Made by a program: the position numbers and the translations under genes
Part shown: positions 2,811-29,710 of the stretch, one piece after another
Numbering within the stretch: the stretch's first letter is position 1
Layout: the number at the start of each line of letters is the position of its first letter
NCBI GenBank assembly: GCA_036375695.1
Contig: DASVBU010000021.1
Span: 27,329-91,328, forward strand
Reading direction: 5' to 3'
DNA from: Acidimicrobiia bacterium
Lineage (GTDB): Bacteria > Actinomycetota > Acidimicrobiia > Spongiisociales > ZC4RG35
DNA: 64,000 nt
The notes under the pieces: generated by a model
What the model was told of the DNA's origin: nothing
What the model saw: only the letters and a program-made list of their open reading frames with translations
Database searches by the model: none

Positions 2811-3913
2811 AGCACCTTCTCCATTCGCTCCAGGATGGCCAGCAGCGTCGCCTCGTCGGTGGCGAAGTTGAATCTGGCGTGGCCCTCGCCACCCGGCCCG
2901 AATGGGAGACCGCCGCTCAGGGCCACCCGCGCCTCGTCCAACAGCACCGCGGCCGGGTCGTCCCACCCGTAGTCGGTGAAGTCGAGCCAGGCCAGGAACG
3001 TGGCCTCGGGCAGATGCATCCGCACCCTGGGAAGACGCTCGTCGATGAAGGAGGCGAGGAGGTCGCGGTTGTGCCGGAGACGCATCAGGACCTCGTCGAG
3101 CCATCCCTCCCCCTCCGCATATGCGGCGGCGCCTGCGATCAGCCCGAAGGTGCCCACCCCGATCTTCTCCGGGGTGAAGTAGTCGCGCCAGAATTCGAGG
3201 TCGCGGTCGTTGGTGAGGACGACCTGGGCGCACTTGAGCCCGGGAAGGTTGAACGCCTTCGACGCCGAGGTGATGGTGATGACCACATCGGGGGCGAGGG
3301 GCGCGGCCATCGTGTGGCTCCGCCCGTCGTAGAGGATGGCGGCATGGATCTCGTCGGCGATGACCCGGGCCCCATGCCGGGCCGCCACCGACACGACGTC
3401 CGAGACCTCGTCGACGCTGAGTGCCCGGGCCACCGGGTTCCACGGATTGCAAAGGACGACCGACCCGGCACCTTCGGCGAACGCACGATCCAGCCCGTCG
3501 ATGTCGATGCGGAAGCCGGCCTCCTCTTCGATGGAGGGCACCTCGATCACTTCGCGCCCGGCGCGCTCCACCATGGAGTAGAACGGGAAGTAGACAGGTG
3601 GGTGGAGGATCACCGGGCTCCCCGGCTCGGTGAGATGCATGATCGCCCGCCGACCTGCCTCGATGACGTCAGGGGCCGGGAACACGCCGGCCGGATCGAT
3701 GTCCGCGCCGAACCGCCGCTTCCAGAATCCCGTCGCCGCGACCGCGGCTGCCTCCTCGAGCCCGGGGTACGGGTATCCGGTGTCGCCGAGGTCGACGGCC
3801 TCGTGAAGCGCTTTGCTCACCGGCGGCGCCAACCCGAAGTCCATCTCCGCCACCCAGGCGCAGAGAACGTCCGGCTCGTAGTAGTTCCATTTCAGGCAGG
3901 GGCGGCTGGTCAT
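2807..3913 (-). CDS. MalY/PatB-type PLP-dependent aminotransferase / cystathionine beta-lyase (class I/II)
   Basis: 368 aa; WNYYEPD...AEMDF N-terminus and overall aminotransferase I/II organisation typical of PatB/MalY C-S lyases; convergent with dppC, stops overlap. Confidence 0.75.
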   Translation of the reverse strand: MTSRPCLKWNYYEPDVLCAWVAEMDFGLAPPVSKALHEAVDLGDTGYPYPGLEEAAAVAATGFWKRRFGADIDPAGVFPAPDVIEAGRRAIMHLTEPGSPVILHPPVYFPFYSMVERAGREVIEVPSIEEEAGFRIDIDGLDRAFAEGAGSVVLCNPWNPVARALSVDEVSDVVSVAARHGARVIADEIHAAILYDGRSHTMAAPLAPDVVITITSASKAFNLPGLKCAQVVLTNDRDLEFWRDYFTPEKIGVGTFGLIAGAAAYAEGEGWLDEVLMRLRHNRDLLASFIDERLPRVRMHLPEATFLAWLDFTDYGWDDPAAVLLDEARVALSGGLPFGPGGEGHARFNFATDEATLLAILERMEKVL

Positions 3914-3933
3914 GCGCCCATCATCGCGGAAGT

Positions 3934-4779
3934 TCAGGCCCCGATGGCAGATGCCGCGGTGCGGAACCTCCCGGCGATGGCGCGGCCGAAGAGGACCACG
4001 AAGAAGAACGCCACCGCGAACAGGGCGATGGTGGCGGAGCCGGCCGTGCCGGCGTGATAGCTGACGATCAAGCCCGTCACCACCGACAGGCCGCCGATGA
4101 CGACCGCCAGACCCATGATCATCGGGACCCGGCGGGCGATCAGCGATGCGGTGGCCGGGGGTCCGACGAGCAGCCCGAAGACGAGGAGGGTCCCCACCGT
4201 TCGGAAGGAGCCCACGATCACCAGGGTGATCAGTGCCAGCATGACGAAATGGGCGAGACGCGGTCGTAGGCCCAGGAGCCGGGCCTTGTCCTCGTTGAAG
4301 GAGAGGACGAGGAAGGGGCGATGGAACGCGATGGTCGCCACCACCGAGAGCCCGGCGATGAGGGCGAGGAGCACGATGTCGCCCCTCGTCACGCCGAGGG
4401 TGTCACCGAAGAGGACCGCCGCCAGCGTTCCCGCATAGGCGGGCGTGATGGAGAGGAGGATCACACCGAGGGCGAGCATCCCCACGAAGAGGAGGCCGAT
4501 CCCGGTGTCGTCTCCGAAGGACGTGCGGCTCCGGACGTAGTTGATCCCCAGGATCATCATCAGCGCGGCCCCGGCCGCCCCGATGAGCGGGTTGAAATCG
4601 AGGAGGACAGCGAGGGCGATCCCGGGGATGACGCCGTGGACGAGGGCGTCGCCCAGGAACGCCATGCCCCGGATCACCACCCAGGTGCCGACCAGGGCGA
4701 GAGCCATCGCGGCGAGGACGCCCGCCACAAGGGCTCGTTGCTGGAAGGCCAGCGCGAAGGGTTCGGTGAGCCAGTCCAT
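3934..4779 (-). CDS. znuB: metal (Zn/Mn) ABC transporter permease, ZnuB/TroC family
   Basis: 281 aa polytopic; ABC-3 family sequence; immediately downstream of a ZnuA-like SBP gene. Confidence 0.8.
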   Translation of the reverse strand: MDWLTEPFALAFQQRALVAGVLAAMALALVGTWVVIRGMAFLGDALVHGVIPGIALAVLLDFNPLIGAAGAALMMILGINYVRSRTSFGDDTGIGLLFVGMLALGVILLSITPAYAGTLAAVLFGDTLGVTRGDIVLLALIAGLSVVATIAFHRPFLVLSFNEDKARLLGLRPRLAHFVMLALITLVIVGSFRTVGTLLVFGLLVGPPATASLIARRVPMIMGLAVVIGGLSVVTGLIVSYHAGTAGSATIALFAVAFFFVVLFGRAIAGRFRTAASAIGA

Positions 4780-4788
4780 GAGGGCAAG

Positions 4789-5676
4789 CTATCCGCTGGC
4801 CGCCCGCGCGATCTCGCGGGCGTTGTGGCGGAGCAGATCGACCAGCGTCGGAGCAGGGCCGCCGGGGCCCGTCAGCGACTCGGTGTGCAGCGTCACCACA
4901 TCGACCCCTCCCACCTCCGCGGCGACGGTCCGGGCGACATCGTCGTTGCGGGTGGCGTCGACGAAGATCGCCGGCAGGTCCCGCGAGCGGATCAGCCGAA
5001 CGAGCTCGGCGAGGTCTCCCGAGCTGGGCGCCCCCGTGGACGAGCCCCCGGGGATGACGGTGGCGAGGACGTCCCACCCGTATCGGTCGGCGAAGTAGCC
5101 CATGGTGGCGTGATTGGTGACCAGCACCCGACGGTCGGGGGGCACCGCCTCCAGTATCCCCTCGATCTCCACATGGACGGCACGCAGCCGCTCGGCGTAG
5201 GCCAGGGCACGCTCCTCCCAGCCGACCTCGGGGTCGATCCGGGAAAGCTCGCCGGCGACCAGCCCGGCAGCATCCGCCATCCGGAGCGGATCCATCCAGA
5301 CATGGGGGTCGAGGCTGTGATCGTCACCTTCGACCACCTCGATGGGATCGAGGAGGGGTGCGACCTCGAACACCGCCACACCGTCGGCGGCCACGGATTC
5401 GAGGACGCCGGCCAGGGCCTCTTCCAGACCCAGGCCGTTGGCCACGACGAGGTCGGCCCGGGCCATGGCAGCCACCTGTGCCGAGGATGGCTGGAACTCG
5501 TGGGGGTCGGCGCCCGCAGGGATCAGGACCTCGACGGTCGCCCCGTCGCCGACGACGTTCGCCACGAGGTCGCCGAGGATGTTGGTCGTGACGACGATGC
5601 GCGGCTGGCCCGCGCCATCGTTGCCGCATGCCGCGACCAGGAGGGCGAGGACGATGGTGGCGGTTGCCCTTTTCAT
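4789..5676 (-). CDS. znuA: metal ABC transporter substrate-binding lipoprotein, ZnuA/TroA family
   Basis: Start moved to ATG at 5674-5676 (MKRATATIVLALLVAACG lipobox). The track's first 10 codons start at TTG and translate an AT-rich operator region. Acidic/His-rich stretch typical of ZnuA. Confidence 0.8.
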   Translation of the reverse strand: MKRATATIVLALLVAACGNDGAGQPRIVVTTNILGDLVANVVGDGATVEVLIPAGADPHEFQPSSAQVAAMARADLVVANGLGLEEALAGVLESVAADGVAVFEVAPLLDPIEVVEGDDHSLDPHVWMDPLRMADAAGLVAGELSRIDPEVGWEERALAYAERLRAVHVEIEGILEAVPPDRRVLVTNHATMGYFADRYGWDVLATVIPGGSSTGAPSSGDLAELVRLIRSRDLPAIFVDATRNDDVARTVAAEVGGVDVVTLHTESLTGPGGPAPTLVDLLRHNAREIARAASG

Positions 5677-5687
5677 CTCGATACCTA

Positions 5688-5712
5688 TAATGAGAATCGT
5701 TATCAACTAGAT
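5688..5712. promoter_or_regulatory. AT-rich divergent promoter/operator between znuA and zur with a candidate Zur box (ATGAGAATCGTTATCA) and a perfect TATAAT
   Basis: About 45 bp island of <40% GC in a 70% GC genome; imperfect palindrome resembling actinobacterial Zur boxes (TGAAAATCATTTTCA-like); coordinates approximate. Confidence 0.4.
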
Positions 5713-5725
5713 TATCACGAACAGA

Positions 5726-6169
5726 GTGACCGTCGCCAGCCACCATCGCCAGGTCGAGAGCCGTCTCGCCGAGTCCCAGGTCCGCTATACGAAGGGGCGG
5801 CGGGCGGTGGTCGATCTCCTCGCCTCCGCCGAGGGGCCCCTGGGCGCGGCCGAGATCCACGAGCGGCTCGAGGGTCAGGTCCCGCTCTCGTCGGTGTATC
5901 GCACCCTCTCGGTCCTCGAGGAGGCCGGCGTGCTCATCCCCCACTTCGCCCAGAAGGGCCTCACCCGGTACGAGCTCGCCGAATGGCTTCGGGGGCACCA
6001 CCATCATCTCGTGTGCGTCGTCTGTGGCGGCGTCGAAGACTTCACCCTGCCCGAGAGGTTGGAGGCGGAGATGGACCGCATCGTGCGCGACATCGGCTCC
6101 CTCGCCCGCTTCCGGGCGGTCAACCACTCGCTGGAGATCGAGGGGAGGTGCACCCGGTGCGACGCCTGA
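5726..6169 (+). CDS. zur: Fur-family transcriptional regulator, zinc uptake regulator (Zur)-like
   Basis: 147 aa; winged-helix N-terminus; His-rich HHHH then CxxC...CxxC metal-site motifs; divergent from znuA and followed by znuC; GTG start. Confidence 0.75.
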   Translation: MTVASHHRQVESRLAESQVRYTKGRRAVVDLLASAEGPLGAAEIHERLEGQVPLSSVYRTLSVLEEAGVLIPHFAQKGLTRYELAEWLRGHHHHLVCVVCGGVEDFTLPERLEAEMDRIVRDIGSLARFRAVNHSLEIEGRCTRCDA

Positions 6170-20990: not shown

Positions 20991-22004
20991 TCAGCCCGGG
21001 AAGACGGTCACGGCGTCGACGTCTACCTCCACCCGGTCGCCCGGGCTGAAGTGGTCGCCAGGGCCGAGCCGGGACCGGATCAGGGTGCCGTCGTCGAACG
21101 CCACCGTGACCAGCTGGTCGTGGCCGAAGAACTCGCGGCCCTTCACCACCGCCTTGCCCCTGGGGTCGGCGACCAGACGGACCGACTCCGGCCGGACCAT
21201 GACCCAGACCTCCCCTTCGCCGTCGCCCCGGAAGGCGCCGAGCACCGACTCGACACTCCCCCCGTGACCCCTCCCGCGGATGAAGTTGGCGTCGCCGATG
21301 AACTGGCCCACCCAGGCGCTGGCGGGCGACCAGTACAGCTCCTGCGGCGTGGCCATCTGGACGATGCGCCCGCGGTTCATCACTGCGACCAGGTCGGAGA
21401 TGGAGAGTGCCTCTTCCTGGTCGTGGGTGATGAAGAGGGCGGTGGTGCCGGCACCCCGGAGGATGCTGATGATCTCGCCCCGCACGCGTGACCGCAGCGT
21501 GTCGTCGAGGTTGGAGAACGGCTCGTCGAGGATGAGGACGTCGGGACGAGGGGCCATGGCCCGGGCCAGGGCGACCCTCTGTTGCTGACCGCCCGACAAC
21601 TCGTGCGGGTAGCGCTTCCCCAGACCGGTGAGACCGACCACCTCGAGGATCTCGTCGACCCGCGCCTCCCGGTCCTTTGCCTTGGCCAGGCCGTACCCGA
21701 CGTTGGCCCGCACGTCCATGTGCGGGAAGAGGGCGTAGTCCTGGAGGACGACCCCGACTCTTCTCTCTTCAGGCGGGACGAAGACGCCCGGCCCGACGAC
21801 ACGGCGGCCACGGATGTCCACGGTGCCTGCATCGGGGCGGTCGAAGCCGGCGAGGACCCGGAGCATGGTGCTCTTCCCGGTGCCCGACGGACCGAGGAGG
21901 GTGACCACGGCGCCGGCGGGCACGCTGAGATCGCATCCGTCGAGCGCCACGGTCTCGCCGTAGCGCTTGGTGATCCCGACCGCGTCGATGACCAGTTCAG
22001 TCAT
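20991..22004 (-). CDS. ABC transporter ATP-binding protein with TOBE domain, iron(III)/polyamine type (FbpC/PotA-like)
   Basis: Walker A GPSGTGKST, LSGGQQQRVALAR signature, Walker B LILDEP; C-terminal TOBE-like domain. Confidence 0.8.
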   Translation of the reverse strand: MTELVIDAVGITKRYGETVALDGCDLSVPAGAVVTLLGPSGTGKSTMLRVLAGFDRPDAGTVDIRGRRVVGPGVFVPPEERRVGVVLQDYALFPHMDVRANVGYGLAKAKDREARVDEILEVVGLTGLGKRYPHELSGGQQQRVALARAMAPRPDVLILDEPFSNLDDTLRSRVRGEIISILRGAGTTALFITHDQEEALSISDLVAVMNRGRIVQMATPQELYWSPASAWVGQFIGDANFIRGRGHGGSVESVLGAFRGDGEGEVWVMVRPESVRLVADPRGKAVVKGREFFGHDQLVTVAFDDGTLIRSRLGPGDHFSPGDRVEVDVDAVTVFPG

Positions 22005-23604
22005 GGATGTCCTTGACCACGAAGAAGTACAGGGGCGCCGCCGACACCAGGATCAGGGCCAAAGCGGCAAAGCTGGCCTGACTGTAGAAGACCTCGTTGG
22101 TTGCGCTCCAGATGCGCACCGGGAGCGTGTCGAACTCCGTGGGACGTAGCAGGAGCGTGGCCGGCAGCTCCTTCATCACCGACAGGAAGACCAGAGCCGC
22201 CCCCGCCAGCGCGGAGCGCCGCATCATCGGGATGGTGACCCGCCGCATCGTCGCCCATTGGCCCATGCCGAGGCTGCGGGACACCTCCTCCAACGCGGGA
22301 CCGATCCTCCTCATCCCGCTCTCCACCGCGGCCAGGGCCTGAGGCAGGAACATCGCCAGATAGACGATGATCAGCAGGGGGATCGTCTGGTAGATGGGGC
22401 GGAACCACTGGACGGTGAGGACCAGGAAGGCGAGACCGACAGCCAGGTGGGGAAGCGAGTAGGTGAGCCACGGGATGCCCTCGAGCACCCGGGTGACCGA
22501 GTTGCGGTGCCTGGTGGCGAGGATCCCCAGTGGCACCGCCGCCGCGCCCACCACCAAGGCCGCCACCGCCGAGAGCCCGATCGACCTCAGTGTCTGCGGC
22601 ACCACACCGAGAAGGGAGGCACCCTGGGCGATGCCGCGGACCATCCACCACACCATCGTCGAGATCGGCAGGAGAAGGGCCAGGAGGGCCAGGAGCCCCA
22701 GAAACGAGTGGGCCACAACCCGGCCGGCGGGGCTCAGGTTGTGCAGCGAGACCCGACGCGCCGGTCGTGCGCCGTAGAGGGCGGCCCGGCCCCGGGCCAC
22801 CTGCTGCAAGACCACCAGGACCAGAGCACCGGACGAGAGCACACCCGCCAGGAAGAGGGCAGGGCCGGGGTCGAGACGGCCCGCGAACTGGGTGTAGATG
22901 GTGCGGGTGAACGTGTCGAACCGGAGCATCGAGACCGCCCCGAACTCGGCGATGACGTAGAGGGCCACGAGCAGGGCGCCGGAGGCGAGGGCAGGCCGAA
23001 GTTGCGGTATGACCACTTTCCGGATGGTGCGCCACCGCCCGGCGCCCAAGCCCCGGGACACGTCCTCCAGAGCCGGGTCGAGCCGACGTAGCACCGGCAC
23101 CGCCAGCAGGTGGATGAAGGAGAAGTTCCACAGGCTCAGCGCGGCCCACGCCGCCCAAAAGCCCTGGAACACCGGGAGACCCGGGAGGCCGAGCTTCTCG
23201 AGGAAAAGGGTGAGGGTGCCCCCGTTTCCCGATGCCGACAGCATCGCCAGGGCGCCGACATAGGAAGGGATGACCAGGGGCAAGGTCATCAACGTCGACC
23301 AGATCCGGGAGCCACCGAGATCGGTCCGGGTCGTCAGCCAGGCGGTGGTCAGACCGAGCGCCAACGTGGTGGCGGTCACGGTCACCGTGAGCAGACCCGT
23401 CGAGACCGCCAGTTCCCGGAGCCTCTCTCCGGTGAAGCCGCCGGCGTCGAACCCGCCCGGTCGCAGCACCACCCACAGGAGGTAGACGATGGGGATCGCC
23501 GCCGGGAGGACAACGGCGACCCCGGCCACCCAGAGGGCGGCCGGGGCCTCGGGTCGCCTGGTTGTCCCGGCGGGCGTCGTCAGACGATGGGCGAGTTCGA
23601 CCAA
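21997..23604 (-). CDS. iron(III) ABC transporter permease, two fused permease domains (FbpB-like)
   Basis: 535 aa, about 12 TM; sits between the FbpC-like and FbpA-like genes. Confidence 0.8.
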   Translation of the reverse strand: MVELAHRLTTPAGTTRRPEAPAALWVAGVAVVLPAAIPIVYLLWVVLRPGGFDAGGFTGERLRELAVSTGLLTVTVTATTLALGLTTAWLTTRTDLGGSRIWSTLMTLPLVIPSYVGALAMLSASGNGGTLTLFLEKLGLPGLPVFQGFWAAWAALSLWNFSFIHLLAVPVLRRLDPALEDVSRGLGAGRWRTIRKVVIPQLRPALASGALLVALYVIAEFGAVSMLRFDTFTRTIYTQFAGRLDPGPALFLAGVLSSGALVLVVLQQVARGRAALYGARPARRVSLHNLSPAGRVVAHSFLGLLALLALLLPISTMVWWMVRGIAQGASLLGVVPQTLRSIGLSAVAALVVGAAAVPLGILATRHRNSVTRVLEGIPWLTYSLPHLAVGLAFLVLTVQWFRPIYQTIPLLIIVYLAMFLPQALAAVESGMRRIGPALEEVSRSLGMGQWATMRRVTIPMMRRSALAGAALVFLSVMKELPATLLLRPTEFDTLPVRIWSATNEVFYSQASFAALALILVSAAPLYFFVVKDIHD

Positions 23605-23614
23605 TTCGTCGTCC

Positions 23615-24643
23615 TCAGCTCAGACCGACCTCCGCGATCAGGTCGACGGCGCTGTCCAGGTAGTCGGCCAGATCCGAGAGGTTGATGTCGGGGCCCCGCA
23701 ACTCCGAGAGTGGCTTCTGGCCCTCGGGTGTGAAGTCGCCTTCGATGAGACCGTACTCGTGGAGGTTCTCCGAGAAGTGCCGCTGGGCGTCCTCGGCGAG
23801 CAGGTAGCGGATGAACTCCAGCGCCGCCTCCTTGTTGTCCGAGGGCTCGAGGACACCCACGCCGGTGGCCGCCACCAGGGCGCCCGGGTCACCGGGGGCC
23901 AGGTAGTGGTTCTTGGCGGTGGCCGAGCCCTGGTCGTCGATCAGGCCGAGTAGGTAGTAGTGATTGACCAGCCCGGCGTCGAGGTCGCCGGCGTCGACGG
24001 CCTGGACGATCGGGCCGTTGCTCGGGAAGATCTGGGGGTCGTTGGCGACCATTCCCTCCAGCCACTCCCGCGTCTTCTCGGTGCCGTCGACCAGTTCCAT
24101 CGCCGAGACGAAGGCTATGAACGAGGCATTGGTCGGAGCGATGCCGATGCGCCCCTTCCACTTGGGATCGGTCAGCTCATAGACGCTGGCGGGCAACTCG
24201 TCCTCGGAGACCAGCTCCGGGTTGTAGACGAGGACACGGCTCCGGCCGGTGACCCCGACCCAATGCCCATCCGCGTCGCGGTAATGCTCGGGGACCAGGG
24301 AGAGGATGTCCTCGGGGAGCTCGGCGAGCAGCCCCTCGTCACCGATTGCGCCGATCCATGCCGGGTCCTGGGCCCAGAACACGTCGGCGTCGGTGGTCTC
24401 GCCCTCGTTGAGGATCGTCGTGGCGAGGTCACTGGTGCCATCGCCGTAGCGGACCCGGACATCGATGCCGGTGTCCGCCTCGAACTCCTCGATGATCGGG
24501 GTGACGAAGTTCTCGTTCCTGCCCGAGTAGACGGTCAGCGTGCCGGACCCGAGCGTGGTGTCGGTGGACTGCTCCCCGCAAGCGGCCACCGCGACGACCA
24601 GCGCCAGGACGGCGGTCGCCAACCTGGATGTGCTTCGAACCAT
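23615..24643 (-). CDS. iron(III)-binding periplasmic lipoprotein (FbpA/AfuA family SBP)
   Basis: Start re-set to ATG at 24641-24643 (MVRSTSRLATAVLALVVAVAACG lipoprotein signal). The track's extra 47 N-terminal codons would otherwise overlap the upstream gene. Confidence 0.75.
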   Translation of the reverse strand: MVRSTSRLATAVLALVVAVAACGEQSTDTTLGSGTLTVYSGRNENFVTPIIEEFEADTGIDVRVRYGDGTSDLATTILNEGETTDADVFWAQDPAWIGAIGDEGLLAELPEDILSLVPEHYRDADGHWVGVTGRSRVLVYNPELVSEDELPASVYELTDPKWKGRIGIAPTNASFIAFVSAMELVDGTEKTREWLEGMVANDPQIFPSNGPIVQAVDAGDLDAGLVNHYYLLGLIDDQGSATAKNHYLAPGDPGALVAATGVGVLEPSDNKEAALEFIRYLLAEDAQRHFSENLHEYGLIEGDFTPEGQKPLSELRGPDINLSDLADYLDSAVDLIAEVGLS

Positions 24644-24680
24644 GACTCGCAAGGTATAAACACTATGGCCATAGTGCAAA

Positions 24681-26669
24681 TTACCGGGCGAAGCCGAGCA
24701 GGTGGAGCTCGGAGGGGAGAAGTGCCTGCGGCCCGTCCGACAGCGCCTCCTCGGGACGGGGATGGATCTCCACCATGAGGCCATGGGCGCCGGCTGCGAG
24801 ACCCGCCCGGCCCAGGGGGATGACCAGGGGTCGCACCCCGGCTGCGTGCGACGGATCCACGATCACCGGGAGATGGGTCAACTGCCGCAGCACCGGCACC
24901 GCGGCCACGTCGAGGGTGCTCCTGGTGGCGGTCTCGAAGGTGCGAATGCCTCGCTCGCACAGGATCACCTGGCGGTTGCCCTCGGCCAGTATGTACTCCG
25001 CCGCCTGGAGGAACTCCTCGATGGTGGCGCTCATACCCCGCTTGAGCAGAACAGGTTTGCGCACCTTGCCCACGGCCGACAGGAGGGCGAAGTTCTGCAT
25101 GTTGCGGGTCCCGATCTGGAGGACGTCGGCGACCTCCGCCATCGGCGCCACGTGCTCGGGCGCGAGGACCTCGGTGACGACGGGGAGCCCGTGGGCCCTT
25201 CCCGCCTCGGCGAGCAACTCCAGAGCCTCGAAGCCGAGCCCCTGGAAGCTGTAGGGCGAAGTCCTGGGCTTGAAACAGCCACCCCTCAGCACGCTTCCTC
25301 CCGCCTCCCGCGTCGCCCGGGCGCACTCCATGACCTGCGCCCGGTTCTCCACGGCACAGGGGCCGGCGATGAGGACCGGGTCGGCATCGCCGCCGATTCG
25401 GACGCCCGCCACCTCGACAACGGTGTCCCCCGTACCAGCCCGGCGCGCCAGCTTGGGGACGCCGACGTCGCGGATCGTCGTCGCCGGCGACTCCTCGGGC
25501 ACGACTCCGGTGGCCGGAGGCGCCAGGGGTCGCCGCCTGTGAGGCCGGAGGTCGGAGGACGGGTACGACCCGAGCACGCGCATGAACCGCGCCTTCCGTC
25601 CGACGCCCTCGAGCGCCCGGACCACTGCCTCGTCGGACACGTTGCCCTCGAAGTCGAGGATGAACGTCTCCTCCCAGGGGTCGTCGGGGTTGGGCCGTGA
25701 CTCCAGCTTGACCAGTGGGATGCCCTCACGGGCGAATTCCGCCAGGACCTCCATGAGGGAGCCGGGCTCGTTCCCCACCGAGAGGACGATCGTGGTCTTG
25801 ACGGGGACACCGGGTGTGACATCGATCCGCGCCCTGGAGACCGCCAGGAACCGGGTGAAGTTGTCCGGCCGGTCGGTGATCGACGGGTGCAGGACGTGGA
25901 GACCCCTGGACAACGCGGCCTCCTCCGCGGCCACGGCCGCCACGGACGGGTCGCCGAGCAGGCGGACCTCCTCGGCGGCGCCCGCCGTGTCCCAGCTGTA
26001 GACCACCTCGGCTCCGAGACCGCGCAGGAAGTCGGAGCACTGTGCAACGGCCTGCGGGTGTGCCAGGACGCGGGCGATGCCATCCAGGCTGGCGCCCGGG
26101 AGACCGATGAGCCGATGGGCCACCGGCAACCTGACCTCCCCGGTCACCGCCAGATCGTTGGCGATGAGCAGGTCGTAGACCTCGACGATGCTCCCCGACG
26201 TCGAGTTCTCCACCGGGAGGACCGCCGCGTCCGCCCGCCCCTTCCCCACCTCGGCGACGGCGTCGGCGAAGGTGGTGGTGCCCGCGAACTCGACCCCTTC
26301 GTCACCGAAGAGTCGCCGGGCGGCGACGTGACTGAAGGCACCCGGAGCCCCCTGGAAGGTCACTCGTCTCACCCTCCCGGCGAGTCGCCGCTCACCCACC
26401 AGGTCGAGCTGGACCCGGAGGGAGTCGTCGAGGATCTGCTCCCAGAGACGCACCACCACCCCTGCGTCGAGCCCGTATTCCCGCGCCACCGCCACCCGCT
26501 CGGCGAGGAGACGCTCCTCGCGCTCGGCGTCGTGGAAAGCAAGACCGTTTTGGACCTTCTCTGCGGCGATGTCGGTCACCAGACGGCGACGCTCGGCGAG
26601 CAGCTCGAGGATGCGACGGTCCACGTCGTCGATCCCGGCTCGGTGTGAATCCAATGGTGAAGGGGTCAT
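24681..26669 (-). CDS. tri-domain fusion: chorismate mutase + prephenate dehydratase (with ACT) + DAHP synthase type I-beta
   Basis: N-terminal CM_2 ([25 protein letters not shown]); PDT motifs ([11 protein letters not shown]...ENSTSGSI...); ACT ([32 protein letters not shown]); C-terminal DAHPS I-beta (IAGPCAVEN...[14 protein letters not shown]); GGGAG SD 7 nt upstream. Confidence 0.8.
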
Positions 26670-26754
26670 GGGTGTCTCCCGGGGTGATGCCCGCGACGCG
26701 GGAAATGAAGAGTGAACGAACGATGGAGAAACGGAGGGGTGTGGTGATCGGCGC

Positions 26755-26817
26755 TTACGCGCCGAAATAGGCGCGGCCGAAATAGCGATAGACGAAGCTA
26801 TGGCCGAAACGCCTCAT
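26755..26817 (-). CDS. candidate aromatic amino-acid leader peptide [20 protein letters not shown] (20 aa)
   Basis: Sits 85 nt upstream of the CM-PDT-DAHPS gene on the same strand. 4 Phe and 3 Tyr in 20 codons, all three Tyr as rare TAT codons, rare TAA stop. Followed by hairpins GGCGCGTAAGCGCC and CCCGCGTCGCGGG and a CCUCC stretch that could pair with the downstream SD. Weak SD of its own. Confidence 0.45.
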
Positions 26818-26870
26818 GAAGTCACTATAGCCCCGATCTCCCATGGTGTCTCGGGCCTAACCTCGCCCGG

Positions 26871-27890
26871 TTGACGGGAACGGCTCTCATCTCCGGAACC
26901 GGCCTGATCGGCACATCGATCGGGCTCGGGCTGCGCTCCGCGGGCTGGCAGGTCGTCGGCTGGGACCCAGATCCCGCCACTACCGCGGAGGCGCGGCGTC
27001 GCGGCGCGCTCGACCGGGTCACGGATCACCCGGAGGATCACTCGGGCATCGATCTCGTCGTCCTCGCCGGCCCTCTACCAGCGATCGTGGCCACGCTGAG
27101 GAGCCTGCGAAGCGGCGCTCTGATCACCGACGTCGCCGGTGTCAAGACCCCCGTCGTGGAGGCCGCCGCCAACCTCCCCCGGTTCGTCGGTGGTCATCCC
27201 ATGGCGGGCGGAGCCACCCGCGGCCCGGACCTCGCCTCTGCCCACCTCTTCCACGGAGCTGCCTGGGTGCTGACCACGGACGGAGCCTCGGAGGGTGACC
27301 TGGAGACCATCGAGGAGGTGGTCCGGACGCTGGGCGCAAACCCGCTGCGGATGACCGCCGACGAGCACGACTCGGCCGTCGCCCGGGTCAGCCATCTCCC
27401 CCATCTCCTCGCCGGGGCGCTGGTCAGGATCGCGGCGAGGCGGGAGGCGATGGGTCTGGCCGGAGGTGGCTTCCGCGACCTGACCCGCGTCGCCGCGTCC
27501 GACACGTCGTGGTGGCCGGACGTCCTCCAGGCAAACGCCACCGAGGTGGCTGACGCCATCTCGGAGCTGCAGGCGGACCTGGAGGGGGCCCGGGCACGGC
27601 TCCTCGCCGGCGACAAGGTCGCCATCACCGGGTCGCTCGAGGAGGCGCGGGCCATCCGATCCTCGCTCGGCGAGCACCATGCCCAGATCCGGGTCATCCT
27701 CATCGATCGTCCGGGAGAGTTGGCGCGGGTGGGACATGCCCTGGAGGCGAGCCACGCGGACGTGCGGGACATCCAGCTCCGTCATGGGGAGCACGGGGGT
27801 GGCGGCGTCCTCACCATCTCGGTCACGCCGCGGTCGGCCCGGGCACTGCGTGAGGCGCTGGAGGCCGAGGGCTTCACCCTCGAAGTCTGA
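26871..27890 (+). CDS. tyrA: prephenate/arogenate dehydrogenase (TyrA) with C-terminal ACT domain
   Basis: Rossmann N-terminus ISGTGLIGTSIGLGL; PDH catalytic region GGHPMAGG; TTG start per track; divergent from the leader/CM-PDT-DAHPS unit. Confidence 0.8.
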   Translation: MTGTALISGTGLIGTSIGLGLRSAGWQVVGWDPDPATTAEARRRGALDRVTDHPEDHSGIDLVVLAGPLPAIVATLRSLRSGALITDVAGVKTPVVEAAANLPRFVGGHPMAGGATRGPDLASAHLFHGAAWVLTTDGASEGDLETIEEVVRTLGANPLRMTADEHDSAVARVSHLPHLLAGALVRIAARREAMGLAGGGFRDLTRVAASDTSWWPDVLQANATEVADAISELQADLEGARARLLAGDKVAITGSLEEARAIRSSLGEHHAQIRVILIDRPGELARVGHALEASHADVRDIQLRHGEHGGGGVLTISVTPRSARALREALEAEGFTLEV

Positions 27891-27913: not shown

Positions 27914-28216
27914 ATGCAGCCGTGGATCAGGGATGCCGATGGGGGCGCCGAGTTGCTGATCCACGTCCAGCCGGGGGCCCGAAGATCCGGTGTCGCCGGG
28001 ACCCATGGGGACGCGCTGAAGATCGCGGTACGGGAGAAGGCCACGGGCGGTGCGGCCAACCGCGCCGTCTGCGAACTCGTCGCCGACCTGCTCGAGGTCC
28101 CTCGTTCCACCGTGGAGCTGGTGTCCGGGCACCGCAGTCGTCGCAAACGCCTCCGTGTCGGCGGGGTGGATGCGACCAGCGTCGAGGCCGCGATCTCGGG
28201 CCTCGTGGCCGATTGA
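27914..28216 (+). CDS. DUF167 (YggU/UPF0235) family protein
   Basis: 100 aa; LLIHVQPGARRSGVAGTHGDALKIAVREKATGGAANRAVCELVADLL is characteristic of DUF167. Confidence 0.7.
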   Translation: MQPWIRDADGGAELLIHVQPGARRSGVAGTHGDALKIAVREKATGGAANRAVCELVADLLEVPRSTVELVSGHRSRRKRLRVGGVDATSVEAAISGLVAD

Positions 28217-28324
28217 GGCCATTTCGGCTTTTTGCTCCCTCCCAAACGCCCCATGGTTACACTCCCCCGAATCGGTGGCGGGTTCGCTCGCGCACCGAGC
28301 AATCAAATGGAGGAAAAGGAAGAC

Positions 28325-29710
28325 ATGAGTCGCAATTTCAGATCGCGACACCTGCTGATCCTGACGGTGGTCCTCGCCTTCATCGTTGCCGCATGTGGCA
28401 ATGGTGGCGAGGGGACGACGACCACCACCGGAGGTGGGGACACGACCACCACCGAAGGTGGGATGACGACCACCACGGAAGGCGGCGGGGGTCCCGAAGA
28501 CGACCCGCTCGGTGTCTGGGAGATCGCCCCTGGCGAGGCCATCCAGATCCGGGCGCTCCAGTCCCAGACCGGTGACGCCGGGCCCCTGGGCATCGACCAG
28601 ATCCGGGGCGTCCAGCTCGCCATCGCCGACTTCGGTCCGGTGGCCGGCGAGTGGGAAGTCGACCTCGGCACACCCGAGGACGACCTGTGCAACGCCGAAG
28701 GCGGCCAGGCCGGCGCCCAGGCCATCGTGGCCCAGGAGAACGTGATCGCCGTGATCGGCACCACCTGCTCCGGAGCCGCGTACGCCGCGGCCCCGGTCAT
28801 CACGGGTGCCAACATGGTGATGTTCTCGGGCTCGAACACGGCTCCGAACCTGACCTCTGACCTGCAGGGCAATGCGGGCGAGCAGCACTTCGAGGGCTAC
28901 TACCGCACGGCCCACAACGACCTGTTCCAGGGCGCCGCGGTGGCCAGCTTCGTGTTCAACGACCTGGGTCTGACCCGTGCGGTCGCCATCCATGACGGCG
29001 ACCCCTACACGGAGGGTCTCGTCGACGCCTTCATCGCGGCGTTCGAGACTCTCGGCGGCGAAGTCCCGCTGAAGACGGCCACGACCGGCCAGCAGGGCCA
29101 GGATCAGACGGCGCTCCTCTCCGAGGTCGCCGCTGCCGAGCCCGAGGTCGTGTTCTTCCCGATCTTCCCGCAGACGGGTGGCCCGGAGATCATCCAGCAG
29201 AAGGACGGCGTCGCCGGCCTCGAGGACGTGATCTGGATCGGTGCTGACGGCCTGTTCGTCAACAGCTTCATCACCATCCCGCAGTCCGTGGGCATGTACT
29301 TCTCCGGTCCGGACCTCGACTTCGGTGGCAACACCAGCGCCACTGGTAAGACCTACCAGGAGATGGTGGATGCCTATGTCGCCGAGTTCGGTGAGGAGCC
29401 CACTGCTCCGTTCCACGCCCACACCTACGACGCCACCGTGCTGGTGCTCACCGCCATCCAGGAGGTGGGTGTCGTCGGTGACGACGGCGTGCTGCGGATC
29501 GGCAAGCAGGCCCTGCGCGACTACCTGAACAACGTCTCGGACTTCGACGGTCTGATCGGCAAGATCACCTGCGACGAGTTCGGTGACTGCGGTAGCCAGC
29601 GGGTCCAGGTCGCCCACCACGACGACGCCGCCGTGGACAACATCGCCGACGTGGAGGTCGTCGCTCAGTACGCACGTGCTGACCTGATCGATCTCATCAC
29701 CGGCGGCTGA
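28325..29710 (+). CDS. ABC transporter substrate-binding lipoprotein, Leu/Ile/Val-binding (Peripla_BP_6) family, system 1
   Basis: Start re-set to ATG at 28325 (MSRNFRSRHLLILTVVLAFIVAACG lipobox, AGGAAAAGGAAG SD). Thr/Gly-rich tandem linker TTTTTGGGDTTTTEGGMTTTTEGGGG. LivK-like fold. Confidence 0.8.
   Translation: MSRNFRSRHLLILTVVLAFIVAACGNGGEGTTTTTGGGDTTTTEGGMTTTTEGGGGPEDDPLGVWEIAPGEAIQIRALQSQTGDAGPLGIDQIRGVQLAIADFGPVAGEWEVDLGTPEDDLCNAEGGQAGAQAIVAQENVIAVIGTTCSGAAYAAAPVITGANMVMFSGSNTAPNLTSDLQGNAGEQHFEGYYRTAHNDLFQGAAVASFVFNDLGLTRAVAIHDGDPYTEGLVDAFIAAFETLGGEVPLKTATTGQQGQDQTALLSEVAAAEPEVVFFPIFPQTGGPEIIQQKDGVAGLEDVIWIGADGLFVNSFITIPQSVGMYFSGPDLDFGGNTSATGKTYQEMVDAYVAEFGEEPTAPFHAHTYDATVLVLTAIQEVGVVGDDGVLRIGKQALRDYLNNVSDFDGLIGKITCDEFGDCGSQRVQVAHHDDAAVDNIADVEVVAQYARADLIDLITGG

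Follow-up and report, generated by a model that had tools for sequence, protein, structure and literature searches.

A type I-beta DAHP synthase fused to a P-protein module behind a conserved Phe/Tyr-rich leader in an Acidimicrobiia genome

The fusion gene and its modules

The window, which is the whole stretch of 64,000 nucleotides analysed here, carries on its minus strand a single uninterrupted reading frame in which domains of chorismate mutase (CM), prephenate dehydratase (PDT), ACT and type I-beta DAHP synthase (DAHPS) follow one another (Table 1). The initial annotation had proposed a single polypeptide with this domain order at positions 24681-26669; one ORF of 662 amino acids with exactly these coordinates was found, and the order agrees with the Pfam and NCBIfam scans. 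The start codon is ATG and the sequence GGGAG is located 6 nt upstream. A short leader ORF lies 5' of the gene, followed by a divergently transcribed gene for prephenate dehydrogenase (TyrA). No second gene for a DAHPS, a CM or a PDT was found within the 64-kb window.

Table 1. Features of the fusion gene and its upstream region (positions in the window; residues of the fusion protein)
Feature	Coordinates	Strand	Basis
Complete fusion ORF, 662 aa, CM-PDT-ACT-DAHPS(I-beta), stop codon included	24681..26669	-	ORF list; Pfam and NCBIfam scans
Type I-beta DAHP synthase (beta/alpha)8 barrel, residues 408-657	24699..25448	-	NF006421, TIGR01361, match to 1vs1
Inter-module linker, residues 371-407	25449..25559	-	pLDDT, conservation, gap in PDB matches
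ACT regulatory domain of the PDT module, residues about 290-370	25560..25802	-	Pfam ACT, AF2 model, Foldseek
Prephenate dehydratase catalytic domain, residues 103-280	25830..26363	-	Pfam PDT, 177.1 bits (cut-off 25.2)
AroQ-class chorismate mutase domain, residues 10-87	26409..26642	-	Pfam CM_2, 67.7 bits (cut-off 27)
C-rich, G-poor spacer from leader stop to fusion start codon	26670..26754	-	Composition
6-bp GC hairpin with leader stop codon in loop, CGGCGC-GUAA-GCGCCG	26749..26764	-	Present in 13/13 sequences
Leader peptide, 4 Phe and 3 Tyr in 20 residues	26755..26817	-	Translation
Promoter-like site GAGACA-17-TATAGT, ending 6 nt before the leader ATG	26824..26852	-	Promoter scan
Prephenate dehydrogenase (TyrA) with C-terminal ACT, divergently transcribed	26871..27890	+	Pfam PDH_N, PDH_C, ACT

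Three of the four domains anticipated in the initial annotation exceed their Pfam cut-offs (CM_2, PDT and DAHP_synth_1, the latter with 269.8 bits at residues 418-655 against a cut-off of 25.5), whereas ACT, at residues 292-356, remains slightly under its own (25.1 versus 27 bits). The ACT assignment was accepted nevertheless because three other observations agree on it. Matches to PDT-plus-ACT proteins extend over all of it (NCBIfam PRK11899 at residues 101-376 and PDB 2qmx at residues 103-369), AlphaFold predicts a beta-alpha-beta-beta-alpha-beta element at residues 290-370, and Foldseek superposes the model on the Phe-bound PDT structure 6vh5 with a TM-score of 0.87. The domain carries motifs typical of Phe-binding ACT domains of PDT: G303, S324 and R325 are invariant while E323 and P326 are conserved to 90% or more (motif E323-S324-R325-P326). 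Signs of Tyr sensing were not seen at the protein level, Tyr appearing only as codons of the leader peptide.

Residues 3-92 align without gaps to residues 4-93 of the E. coli CM chain (EcCM, 1ecm), bringing R10, R27, K38, D47, R50, E51, S83 and Q87 into register with EcCM R11, R28, K39, D48, R51, E52, S84 and Q88; these eight positions are invariant or at least 90% conserved among 43 homologues. The PDT module, which is matched by PDB entries 2qmx, 7alz and 6vh5, has the motif T272-R273-F274, invariant in the same alignment. The CM_2, PDT and ACT order, the CM catalytic residues and the TRF and ESRP motifs are those of a P-protein. The scores stay below the thresholds of the corresponding NCBI equivalogs, namely 265.8 bits versus a cut-off of 577 for the P-protein model PRK10622, 221 versus 359 for PRK11899 and 191 versus 219 for PRK11898. 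By the NCBI criterion the module is thus to be classed as a divergent relative of the P-protein and not as an equivalog.

The C-terminal barrel was assigned to the I-beta class in the initial annotation, in agreement with scores above both I-beta cut-offs: 405.1 bits for NF006421 (cut-off 335; profile positions 73-321 of 338 matched) and 373.2 bits for TIGR01361 (cut-off 267.75), while the best KDO8P synthase model attains 115 bits for a cut-off of 242. The Aeropyrum pernix DAHPS structure 1vs1 matches with an E-value of 1e-96 and, in Foldseek, with 64-65% identity and a TM-score of 0.89. C438, H608, E634 and D645 align with the metal ligands Cys102, His272, Glu298 and Asp309 of the Thermotoga maritima enzyme, and K467-P-R469 of the phosphate-binding KPR(S/T) motif is invariant, the residue roles being those of the T. 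maritima structure. Ten catalytic residues were checked in total; all ten are kept in the window protein and are invariant in the 43-homologue alignment. In a broader alignment of 118 sequences (117 homologues and the window protein), whose members are about 45-65% identical to one another, 98 sequences retain the complete set, and its preservation at such divergence points to purifying selection on catalysis. The barrel has no regulatory domain of its own. The score of the protein with the AroA(G)-type model PRK12595 (375.5 bits versus a cut-off of 279) exceeds the threshold and explains the NCBI name "bifunctional DAHPS/chorismate mutase". The protein does not have the two-domain layout of AroA(G), in which CM adjoins the barrel in about 360 amino acids, since PDT and ACT (residues 103-370) intervene in a chain of 662 residues. 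It also gave no Pfam match to DAHP_snth_FXD (PF18152), a model that detects P0138, P0155 and P0220, and its resemblance to the FXD-regulated DAHPS of the T. maritima type is a topological analogy only.

The two halves are connected by a linker that begins with a conserved S-x-D-L-R-P sequence (S371, D373, L374 and P376 are invariant), continuing into a variable Pro/Arg-rich stretch of non-consensus alignment columns. AlphaFold assigns a pLDDT below 50 to residues 384-403, which are predicted to be disordered, and residues 381-407 are covered by neither the PDT nor the DAHPS matches in the PDB, where no chain spans more than one module of the window protein. A low-complexity segment of this kind is where an assembly error or a frameshift joining pheA to an adjacent aroA(I-beta) gene could hide, and the initial annotation had pointed to such an accident as what would invalidate the fusion. 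The same join, however, recurs in the best 120 database matches, which come from many independent assemblies: PDT and DAHP_synth_1 are present in all of them and CM_2 in all but P0065, a fragment of 526 amino acids. The frame is stop-free over the whole match in 19 of 20 related genomic loci from different assemblies and several phyla, the conserved S-x-D-L-R-P sequence crosses the ACT-linker boundary, and a protein identical to the window protein is present in public collections, its sequence being found on several contigs (its 90% identity cluster includes HEX6946464.1). An artefactual junction is therefore extremely improbable and can be set aside. Note that an apparently larger fusion in the Planctomycetota locus L014 was discarded, its 1285-codon frame resulting from R/A-rich read-through upstream of the normal start.

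Leader peptide and upstream region

Seven of the 20 residues of the leader peptide are Phe or Tyr, the composition of a pheL-type upstream ORF rich in regulating codons. Equivalent ORFs are found upstream of the orthologue in 12 of 19 related loci, where they end with an F/Y run followed by (Y/S)FG(A/V) and the stop codon. The promoter-like site is the only one between positions 24500 and 27000 (shuffled sequences give a mean of 0.1), and TTGAC(G/A) and ACAAT-like hexamers occupy the same place in eight related loci. Its distance to the leader ATG indicates a predicted mRNA that is near-leaderless. The divergent arrangement with tyrA is also conserved, in 12 loci (L001-L007, L009, L017, L020, L021).

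The hairpin whose loop contains the leader stop codon has 100% of its alignment cells paired and shows two compensatory CG-to-UA changes, a result reached by 6 of 500 shuffles. The spacer that follows holds the 3' arm of this hairpin, a conserved CACC..CCCCGC-type motif and the Shine-Dalgarno sequence GGGAG (26676-26680). With 45% C and 19% G it has a C-minus-G skew of 0.26, which ranks in the top 0.2% of 85-nt windows of the sequence, and the same bias is found in all 13 loci compared (C 45-53%, G 13-23%). Leader, hairpin and spacer are all conserved.

The terminator/antiterminator with a U-tract that characterizes pheL was not found here: no terminator-like site was found between positions 24500 and 27000, and RNAalifold of the 13 spacers gave no consensus structure except the stop-codon hairpin. 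A classical attenuator was rejected, as single-sequence folding of the leader region is no better than that of shuffles (z -1.5) and a U-tract is lacking. Sequestration of the Shine-Dalgarno sequence was discarded as well; UUC-rich Phe codons pair with GGAG in several single-sequence folds, inconsistently across loci. A search of Rfam at permissive E-values returned one chance match to a lncRNA (E 0.27).

These features lead us to infer an attenuation mechanism of a different kind. Scarcity of charged tRNA-Phe or tRNA-Tyr would stall the ribosome at the terminal F/Y codons of the leader, and either early termination or blocking of the start site would thereby be relieved. Probable mediators of the response are the stop-codon hairpin and the C-rich spacer, which resembles a Rho-loading site, in place of a classical U-tract terminator. 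The two-layer aromatic control envisaged in the initial annotation is a reasonable reading, given a companion F/Y leader that is both real and conserved. In a 2005 survey, RNA-level control of Phe/Tyr genes was not found in Actinobacteria, a gap that this leader fills.

Distribution of the architecture and state of the barrel

The architecture had been held to be uncommon, a view that the search for it does not sustain. The exact CM-PDT-ACT-DAHPS order was found in at least 56 clusters at 50% identity among the 150 best cluster representatives, in assemblies labelled Acidimicrobiia, Acidobacteriota, Planctomycetota, Ignavibacteriota/Bacteroidota, Alphaproteobacteria and Gammaproteobacteria, and the same order was remarked in Shewanella oneidensis as early as 2005, its DAHPS part being called a pseudogene (PMC1173090). 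Shewanella is absent among the 120 listed matches of an Agarivorans query, so that its link to the family rests on that report and on Alteromonadales-type genera. DAHPS is also fused to branch enzymes in other arrangements (FXD-DAHPS-PDT-ACT, PDT-DAHPS-CM, DAHPS-TrpE and FXD-DAHPS-TyrA-ACT). Names given in public annotation within the family are inconsistent (DAHPS, chorismate mutase, prephenate dehydratase, even KDO8P aldolase) and pathway reconstructions for these phyla can consequently miss PheA or DAHPS. The family is widespread in little-studied bacteria.

This one architecture exists in two states, with a DAHPS that is either catalytically intact or degenerate. The intact fusion is abundant in Acidimicrobiia, Acidobacteriota, Planctomycetota and Ignavibacteriota and is found in cultured Iodidimonas and Stygiobacter, such as Iodidimonas gelatinilytica and Stygiobacter electus. 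Degenerate catalytic residues were found in about 36 of the 48 full-length cluster representatives, and all named gammaproteobacterial members belong to this group, keeping 0-6 of the 10 residues. That catalysis of the barrel was lost repeatedly and independently is a lead, to be read alongside a neighbour-joining tree of the CM-PDT-ACT part that is crude, star-like and devoid of support values.

The number of decayed barrels and the pseudogene designation in Shewanella (PMC1173090) raise the alternative that the window protein, too, has a pseudo-enzyme as its DAHPS domain, the whole being a P-protein that carries a regulatory or structural barrel at its C-terminus. The window protein shares the domain order of the Shewanella type but departs from it precisely in the residues that matter: all ten catalytic residues, including the four metal ligands, are present, the score of 405 bits is above the I-beta subfamily cut-off of 335, and identity to the crystallised A. 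pernix DAHPS is 64-65% (Foldseek). Degenerate members show no more than 23-55% identity in the DAHPS domain. A pseudo-enzyme is accordingly very unlikely here, and the window protein belongs to the intact group. It is a genuine enzyme, probably endowed with three activities, and an uncharacterised variant of known fusions. A described trifunctional CM/PDT/DAHPS enzyme, or a biochemical study of the family, was not found in the open-access literature.

Putative function and comparison with known systems

Flux into aromatic amino-acid synthesis is controlled at its entry by DAHP synthase, an enzyme whose modular allostery is a textbook example of regulation evolving by added domains. Retention of the catalytic residues suggests that the C-terminal barrel would make DAHP from PEP and erythrose-4-phosphate, and that the N-terminal P-protein module would turn chorismate into prephenate and this into phenylpyruvate. 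The fused steps are not consecutive, hence substrate channelling cannot be the purpose of the fusion, whose benefit would most likely be regulatory and stoichiometric. The P-protein module sits where regulated I-beta DAHPS enzymes carry their ACT-like or CM regulatory domain. On account of this position we propose that Phe bound to ACT, and possibly prephenate bound to CM, would shift the N-terminal module so that the DAHPS active site becomes less accessible. Control of DAHPS by Phe through a single ACT domain is plausible by analogy (the initial annotation envisaged feedback by Phe/Tyr), and gating of I-beta DAHPS by modules at the N-terminus has documented precedents (PMC8408635). If Phe were the only inhibitor of the DAHPS, synthesis of Tyr and Trp would be starved, except where inhibition is partial or a second DAHPS is present.

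Structure comparison is consistent with ACT-to-DAHPS allostery without defining its geometry. The ACT-linker-barrel portion aligns over about 370 columns with the ACT-regulated DAHPS of T. maritima and with the chimera 4grs in Foldseek. When ACT and barrel are superposed on T. maritima DAHPS the rmsd is 12-15 Å. The AF2 model has a pTM of 0.54 and a disordered linker, so that its inter-domain geometry is unreliable; no confident ACT-barrel interface emerges from either. These properties, together with the length of the linker, would also suit a fusion that serves co-expression, stoichiometry or oligomerisation only, the barrel being an active scaffold or tetramerisation domain that receives no signal from ACT or CM. 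Its retention in many lineages after catalytic loss does imply a non-catalytic value, possibly structural, and means that fusion alone does not imply regulation of DAHPS. Against this stand the engineered ACT-barrel chimera, which was crystallised (4grs) and reportedly gained allosteric regulation, and the repeated, apparently independent fusion of DAHPS to ACT- or FXD-bearing branch enzymes, which suggests selection for regulation. Moreover, all characterised I-beta DAHPS with an N-terminal extension use it for allosteric gating, and flexible linkers belong to the gating mechanism (PMC8408635). A purely structural or stoichiometric fusion is rather unlikely on this evidence. A trifunctional enzyme with an ACT/CM-gated DAHPS and leader-tuned expression is, taken as a whole, the likely explanation of the locus.

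A wider interpretation is put forward tentatively, as a possibility. The intact CM-PDT-ACT-DAHPS proteins may constitute an additional class, so far undescribed, of regulated I-beta DAHPS in which the whole P-protein acts as the allosteric module (with Phe through ACT and/or prephenate through CM; DAHPS substrates might in turn activate CM/PDT), the family would represent a series from enzyme to pseudoenzyme, and the leaderless leader of Acidimicrobiia might work in a Rho-dependent or translational manner. Fusion of an intact DAHPS to a complete P-protein is a configuration that was not found in the open-access literature; if the P-protein module does regulate the barrel, it adds to the known regulatory add-ons, which are the ACT-like domain, the N-terminal CM and the C-terminal CM. 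The coexistence of intact and decayed barrels in one architecture makes the family a ready system for the study of enzyme-to-pseudo-enzyme evolution.

Among known systems, E. coli P-protein (PheA) has the same CM-PDT-ACT order as residues 1-375 of the window protein, with the EcCM residues, TRF and G...ESRP, and feedback by Phe through the ACT domain would be expected by analogy. The window protein differs in its additional C-terminal DAHPS barrel of 250 residues and in its PheA equivalog score (266 versus 577 bits). Its leader mixes Phe and Tyr codons and, unlike E. coli pheL, is not followed by a U-tract terminator.

The T. maritima DAHPS (1rzm) and the chimera 4grs share with the window protein an ACT fold placed directly N-terminal to the barrel through a flexible linker. 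Here the ACT domain is of the PDT type (Pfam ACT) instead of DAHP_snth_FXD, it is embedded in a larger enzyme and its orientation relative to the barrel differs, as reflected in the rmsd given above. The ligand of the T. maritima enzyme is Tyr, whereas Phe is expected for the window ACT.

The AroA(G) enzymes of Bacillus, Listeria and Geobacillus (3nvt, 5j6f) have an I-beta barrel, matched with an E-value near 1e-82, and an N-terminal AroQ CM. Binding of prephenate to this CM gates the DAHPS active site (PMC8408635). In the window protein about 280 residues of PDT-ACT and a 35-residue linker separate CM from the barrel, and the geometry of any gating must therefore differ. The main CM activity of AroA(G) organisms is thought to come from a separate AroH-class enzyme (PMC8408635), whereas the window CM is found in a full P-protein context.

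Prevotella nigrescens DAH7PS-CM, with a C-terminal CM, and the M. tuberculosis DAHPS-CM complex couple pathway entry to the branch point with reciprocal allostery (PMC8408635). They resemble the window protein in that entry and branch-point enzymes are physically coupled; their domain order and partners are different, and PDT and ACT are absent. In M. tuberculosis the DAHPS is of type II and the association is non-covalent. A further known system is that of the Shewanella-type AroQ-PheA-pseudo-AroA(I-beta) proteins (PMC1173090) and their relatives in Agarivorans, Ferrimonas, Celerinatantimonas and others, which belong to the same homologous family with an identical order, a similar length and a collinear full-length match. 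In these members between 4 and 10 of the ten residues needed for DAHPS catalysis are gone, while the window protein has lost none.

Domain architecture and continuity of the fusion

Chorismate mutase (CM), prephenate dehydratase (PDT), ACT and DAHP synthase (DAHPS) domains are encoded in a single uninterrupted frame, in the order that the initial annotation had read from motifs and that the Pfam scan recovered (see the table below). Its ATG initiation codon is preceded by the Shine-Dalgarno sequence GGGAG 6 nt upstream. The ACT domain falls marginally under its cut-off but has further support: the region lies within full-length PDT-plus-ACT matches to NCBIfam PRK11899 (residues 101–376) and PDB 2qmx (103–369), forms a beta-alpha-beta-beta-alpha-beta unit at residues 290–370 of the AlphaFold model, and gives a TM of 0.87 to Phe-bound prephenate dehydratase 6vh5 (Foldseek). 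Profile scores with NF006421 (405 bits; cut-off 335) and TIGR01361 (373 bits; cut-off 267.75) identify the C-terminal domain as a DAHP synthase of type I-beta, as initially assigned. A KDO8P synthase identity was discarded, the best KDO8PS model reaching only 115 bits. The NF006421 match begins at profile position 73 of 338, so the barrel is without the N-terminal regulatory domain usual for this subfamily.

Features of the fusion gene, its product and its surroundings
Feature	Position	Strand	Remarks
Fusion ORF	24681..26669	−	662 codons
CM_2	residues 10–87		Pfam 67.7 bits, cut-off 27
PDT	residues 103–280		Pfam 177.1 bits, cut-off 25.2
ACT	residues 292–356		Pfam 25.1 bits, cut-off 27
DAHP_synth_1	residues 418–655		Pfam 269.8 bits, cut-off 25.5
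Leader peptide	26755..26817	−	F/Y-rich (4 Phe and 3 Tyr in 20 residues), ends YFGA-stop
Prephenate dehydrogenase (tyrA)	26871..27890	+	PDH_N, PDH_C, C-terminal ACT; divergent from fusion
ABC importer	20991-24643	−	SBP_bac_8-type lipoprotein, two-domain permease, ATPase with TOBE; directly downstream of fusion
DUF167/YggU-family gene	27914-28216	+	after tyrA
Peripla_BP_6 binding protein	28232-29710		branched-chain amino-acid-type; Thr/Gly-rich lipoprotein linker

The CM domain aligns without gaps with E. coli CM 1ecm (query 3–92 to chain 4–93), so that R10, R27, K38, D47, R50, E51, S83 and Q87 fall on R11, R28, K39, D48, R51, E52, S84 and Q88, the EcCM active-site residues; each of the eight positions is invariant or at least 90% conserved among 43 homologues. 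The PDT motif T272-R273-F274, the catalytic Thr motif, is invariant in the homologue alignment. So are G303, S324 and R325 of the ACT domain, where conservation at E323 and P326 is 90% or more; these belong to the GALV/ESRP Phe-site motifs of the P-protein. For the barrel, the match to A. pernix DAHPS 1vs1 has E 1e-96 (64–65% identity, TM 0.89 by Foldseek). Ten checked DAHPS residues (C438, K467, R469, R522, N523, K543, R573, H608, E634, D645) are invariant in close homologues; C438, H608, E634 and D645 line up exactly with T. maritima C102, H272, E298 and D309, its metal ligands. The fusion is real and conserved, and it is probably trifunctional.

A frameshift or assembly error joining two genes had been envisaged in the initial annotation. 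A search of 5.8 billion proteins gave 3215 matches at E ≤ 1e-20, and the best 120 represent many independent assemblies (NCBI, JGI, ENA and Logan). Nearly all of these 120 are 650–697 aa long; PDT and DAHP_synth_1 occur in every one, and CM_2 in every one except P0065, a 526-aa fragment. A GTDB species-genome scan identified 25 loci, 20 matching over most of the protein length, and the frame is stop-free over the whole match in 19 of the 20. Directly after the ACT domain S371, D373, L374 and P376 are invariant, the junction being kept among homologues. A protein identical to that of the window sits in a 90% cluster whose members, among them NCBI accession HEX6946464.1, occur on several contigs. 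On these results an artefactual join is excluded. The sole interruption is in L017 (positions 3881-5816 of a long-contig MAG labelled “uncultured bacterium”), where the orthologue frame is broken and the tyrA match is in three pieces; this locus is either pseudogenised or carries assembly indel errors.

Distribution of the architecture and state of the DAHPS barrel

An exhaustive HMMER search covered 1.84 billion cluster representatives, and the best 150 were classified by segment-wise phmmer. They comprise 56 clusters of CM-PDT-ACT-DAHPS, 56 of DAHPS alone, 11 of PDT-ACT-DAHPS (some truncated), 8 of the reverse order DAHPS-PDT-ACT, 6 of CM-DAHPS, 3 each of CM-PDT-DAHPS and DAHPS-CM, 2 of DAHPS-DAHPS, and one each of CM-ACT-DAHPS, DAHPS-PDT, PDT-DAHPS, PDT-DAHPS-CM and PDT-ACT-PDT-ACT. 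Loci and named proteins with the full architecture come from assemblies labelled Acidimicrobiia, Actinomycetes, Acidobacteriota (including Vicinamibacteria), Planctomycetota and Ignavibacteriota/Bacteroidota (including cultured Stygiobacter electus), and from Alphaproteobacteria (including cultured Iodidimonas gelatinilytica) and Gammaproteobacteria. With 56 of the best 150 clusters and several phyla it is not rare, contrary to the initial annotation, and Song et al. had already remarked in 2005 on the same order in Shewanella, calling the DAHPS part a pseudogene (PMC1173090). Model organisms simply do not carry it. Public names vary: “bifunctional DAHPS/chorismate mutase”, “3-deoxy-7-phosphoheptulonate synthase”, “chorismate mutase”, “prephenate dehydratase”, “chorismate mutase/prephenate dehydratase” and even “2-dehydro-3-deoxyphosphooctonate aldolase”.

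Key residues were tabulated for 48 full-length cluster representatives and five genomic loci, in which the CM, PDT and ACT motifs are kept almost everywhere. The window protein has the complete DAHPS catalytic set (10/10). So do the five loci and about ten of the representatives, whose DAHPS identity to it is 58–70%. About 36 representatives have an eroded set (23–55% identity), some intermediates keeping 5–6 of the ten. The named degenerate members, all Gammaproteobacteria (Agarivorans, Aliagarivorans, Alginatibacterium, Corallincola, Marinobacter, Celerinatantimonas and Ferrimonas), keep 0–6 residues, in agreement with the Shewanella remark. Many of the homologues P0128–P0250, P0142 and P0290–P0301 have lost 4–10 of the ten and retain the CM/PDT/ACT motifs; degenerate members are annotated as DAHPS despite probable loss of this activity. 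A second alignment, of 117 homologues with the window protein, shows the full set in 98 of its 118 sequences. Intact and degenerate members are interleaved in a crude neighbour-joining tree of the CM-PDT-ACT part, computed without support values, and there are hints of repeated decay of the barrel into a pseudo-enzyme. By its residues the window protein is clearly in the intact state. Other members retain a dead barrel, which shows that the barrel is also of use apart from catalysis, probably for oligomerisation or regulation.

Leader region and neighbouring genes

ORFs ending with an F/Y run and (Y/S)FG(A/V)-stop, like the leader of the window, precede the orthologue, ahead of position ~4001, in 12 of the 19 related loci: L001–L009, L017, L018 and L020, which comprise most of the Acidimicrobiia-labelled loci plus L008, L017 and L018. 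None was found in Vicinamibacteria- or Planctomycetota-labelled loci, L010 or L013, and the ORF filter missed any leader in L021. This conserved regulatory leader, at 26670-26852 (−) in the window, is organized as promoter-like site, near-leaderless peptide, stop-codon hairpin, CCCCCGC-containing spacer and Shine-Dalgarno sequence. GAGACA-17-TATAGT, the sole promoter-like site in 24500-27000, ends 6 nt before the leader ATG, so that the leader mRNA is probably leaderless. A 6-bp GC hairpin carries the leader stop codon in its loop; 100% of its cells are paired, and it has two compensatory CG-to-UA changes (reached by 6 of 500 shuffles). The spacer to the fusion gene measures 67–94 nt across loci, with 45–53% C and 13–23% G; in the window its C/G skew is within the top 0.2% of 85-nt windows. 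It has no Rfam match, no alternative hairpins are conserved among the related loci, and the scan of 24500-27000 found no U-tract terminator in the leader/spacer region. For this last reason the leader may act via Rho or translation rather than by classical attenuation. Speculatively, ribosome position on the leader would set Rho access to the C-rich tract; alternatively, the translation start might be occluded. For Actinobacteria, a 2005 survey had reported no regulatory RNA structures ahead of Phe or Tyr operons (PMC1262725).

The divergent tyrA arrangement is kept in 12 loci, including all those labelled Acidimicrobiia, Acidimicrobiales or Actinomycetes and L017, and is not kept in Acidobacteriota, Planctomycetota or Kiloniellaceae loci. 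Only ~53 nt separate the first possible tyrA start from the leader ATG, and the two promoters must therefore overlap or stand back to back. On the other side, the importer lipoprotein has its likely start (MVRSTS...) near 24643; the scan detected no terminator-like site separating importer and fusion gene, making co-transcription possible.

Possible control of DAHPS and comparison with known fusions

Channelling is not the rationale of the fusion because its three reactions are non-consecutive. To our knowledge, all regulated I-beta DAHPS enzymes characterised so far have a module N-terminal to the barrel that shifts on ligand binding and blocks the active site; the ACT-like domain of T. maritima DAHPS exerts this ligand-driven occlusion. 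Gating by CM is documented for the Geobacillus and Listeria enzymes (PMC8408635). In the fusion the PDT-type ACT adjoins the barrel through a ~35-residue linker of predicted disorder (pLDDT <50 at 384–403). Over ~370 columns this ACT-linker-barrel unit aligns both with 1rzm, the T. maritima DAHPS, and with an engineered ACT-barrel chimera (4grs), but the relative orientation differs (rmsd 12–15 Å). The inter-domain geometry of the AlphaFold model is unreliable (pTM 0.54). As characterised N-terminal modules gate and ACT precedes the barrel, the best mechanistic hypothesis is that Phe bound to ACT would gate the DAHPS active site, possibly together with prephenate on CM. The control of DAHPS through a single ACT domain put forward in the initial annotation is a hypothesis, which leaves that interpretation partly supported. 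As a caveat, if this DAHPS were the only one, inhibition by Phe alone would deprive Tyr and Trp synthesis of its supply; no second DAHPS was found within the 64-kb window.

Other I-beta DAHPS fusions with branch enzymes (representatives P0134, P0138, P0155, P0182, P0213 and P0220) include FXD-DAHPS-PDT-ACT, PDT-DAHPS-CM, DAHPS-anthranilate synthase component I and FXD-DAHPS-TyrA(prephenate dehydrogenase)-ACT, a diversity indicating that coupling of entry and branch enzymes is a recurrent solution. In the 2021 Parker lab overview, the only additions named for I-beta DAH7PS are discrete allosteric modules and a CM at the N or C terminus (PMC8408635). Full-text literature searches turned up no paper that describes or characterises an intact triple fusion, and no chain among the PDB matches covers more than one module. 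As a variant of aromatic-pathway fusions already known, the fusion is biochemically uncharacterised; it is not rare and had not gone entirely unnoticed. The present analysis adds the split between intact and pseudo-enzyme barrels within one architecture and a conserved Phe/Tyr leader.
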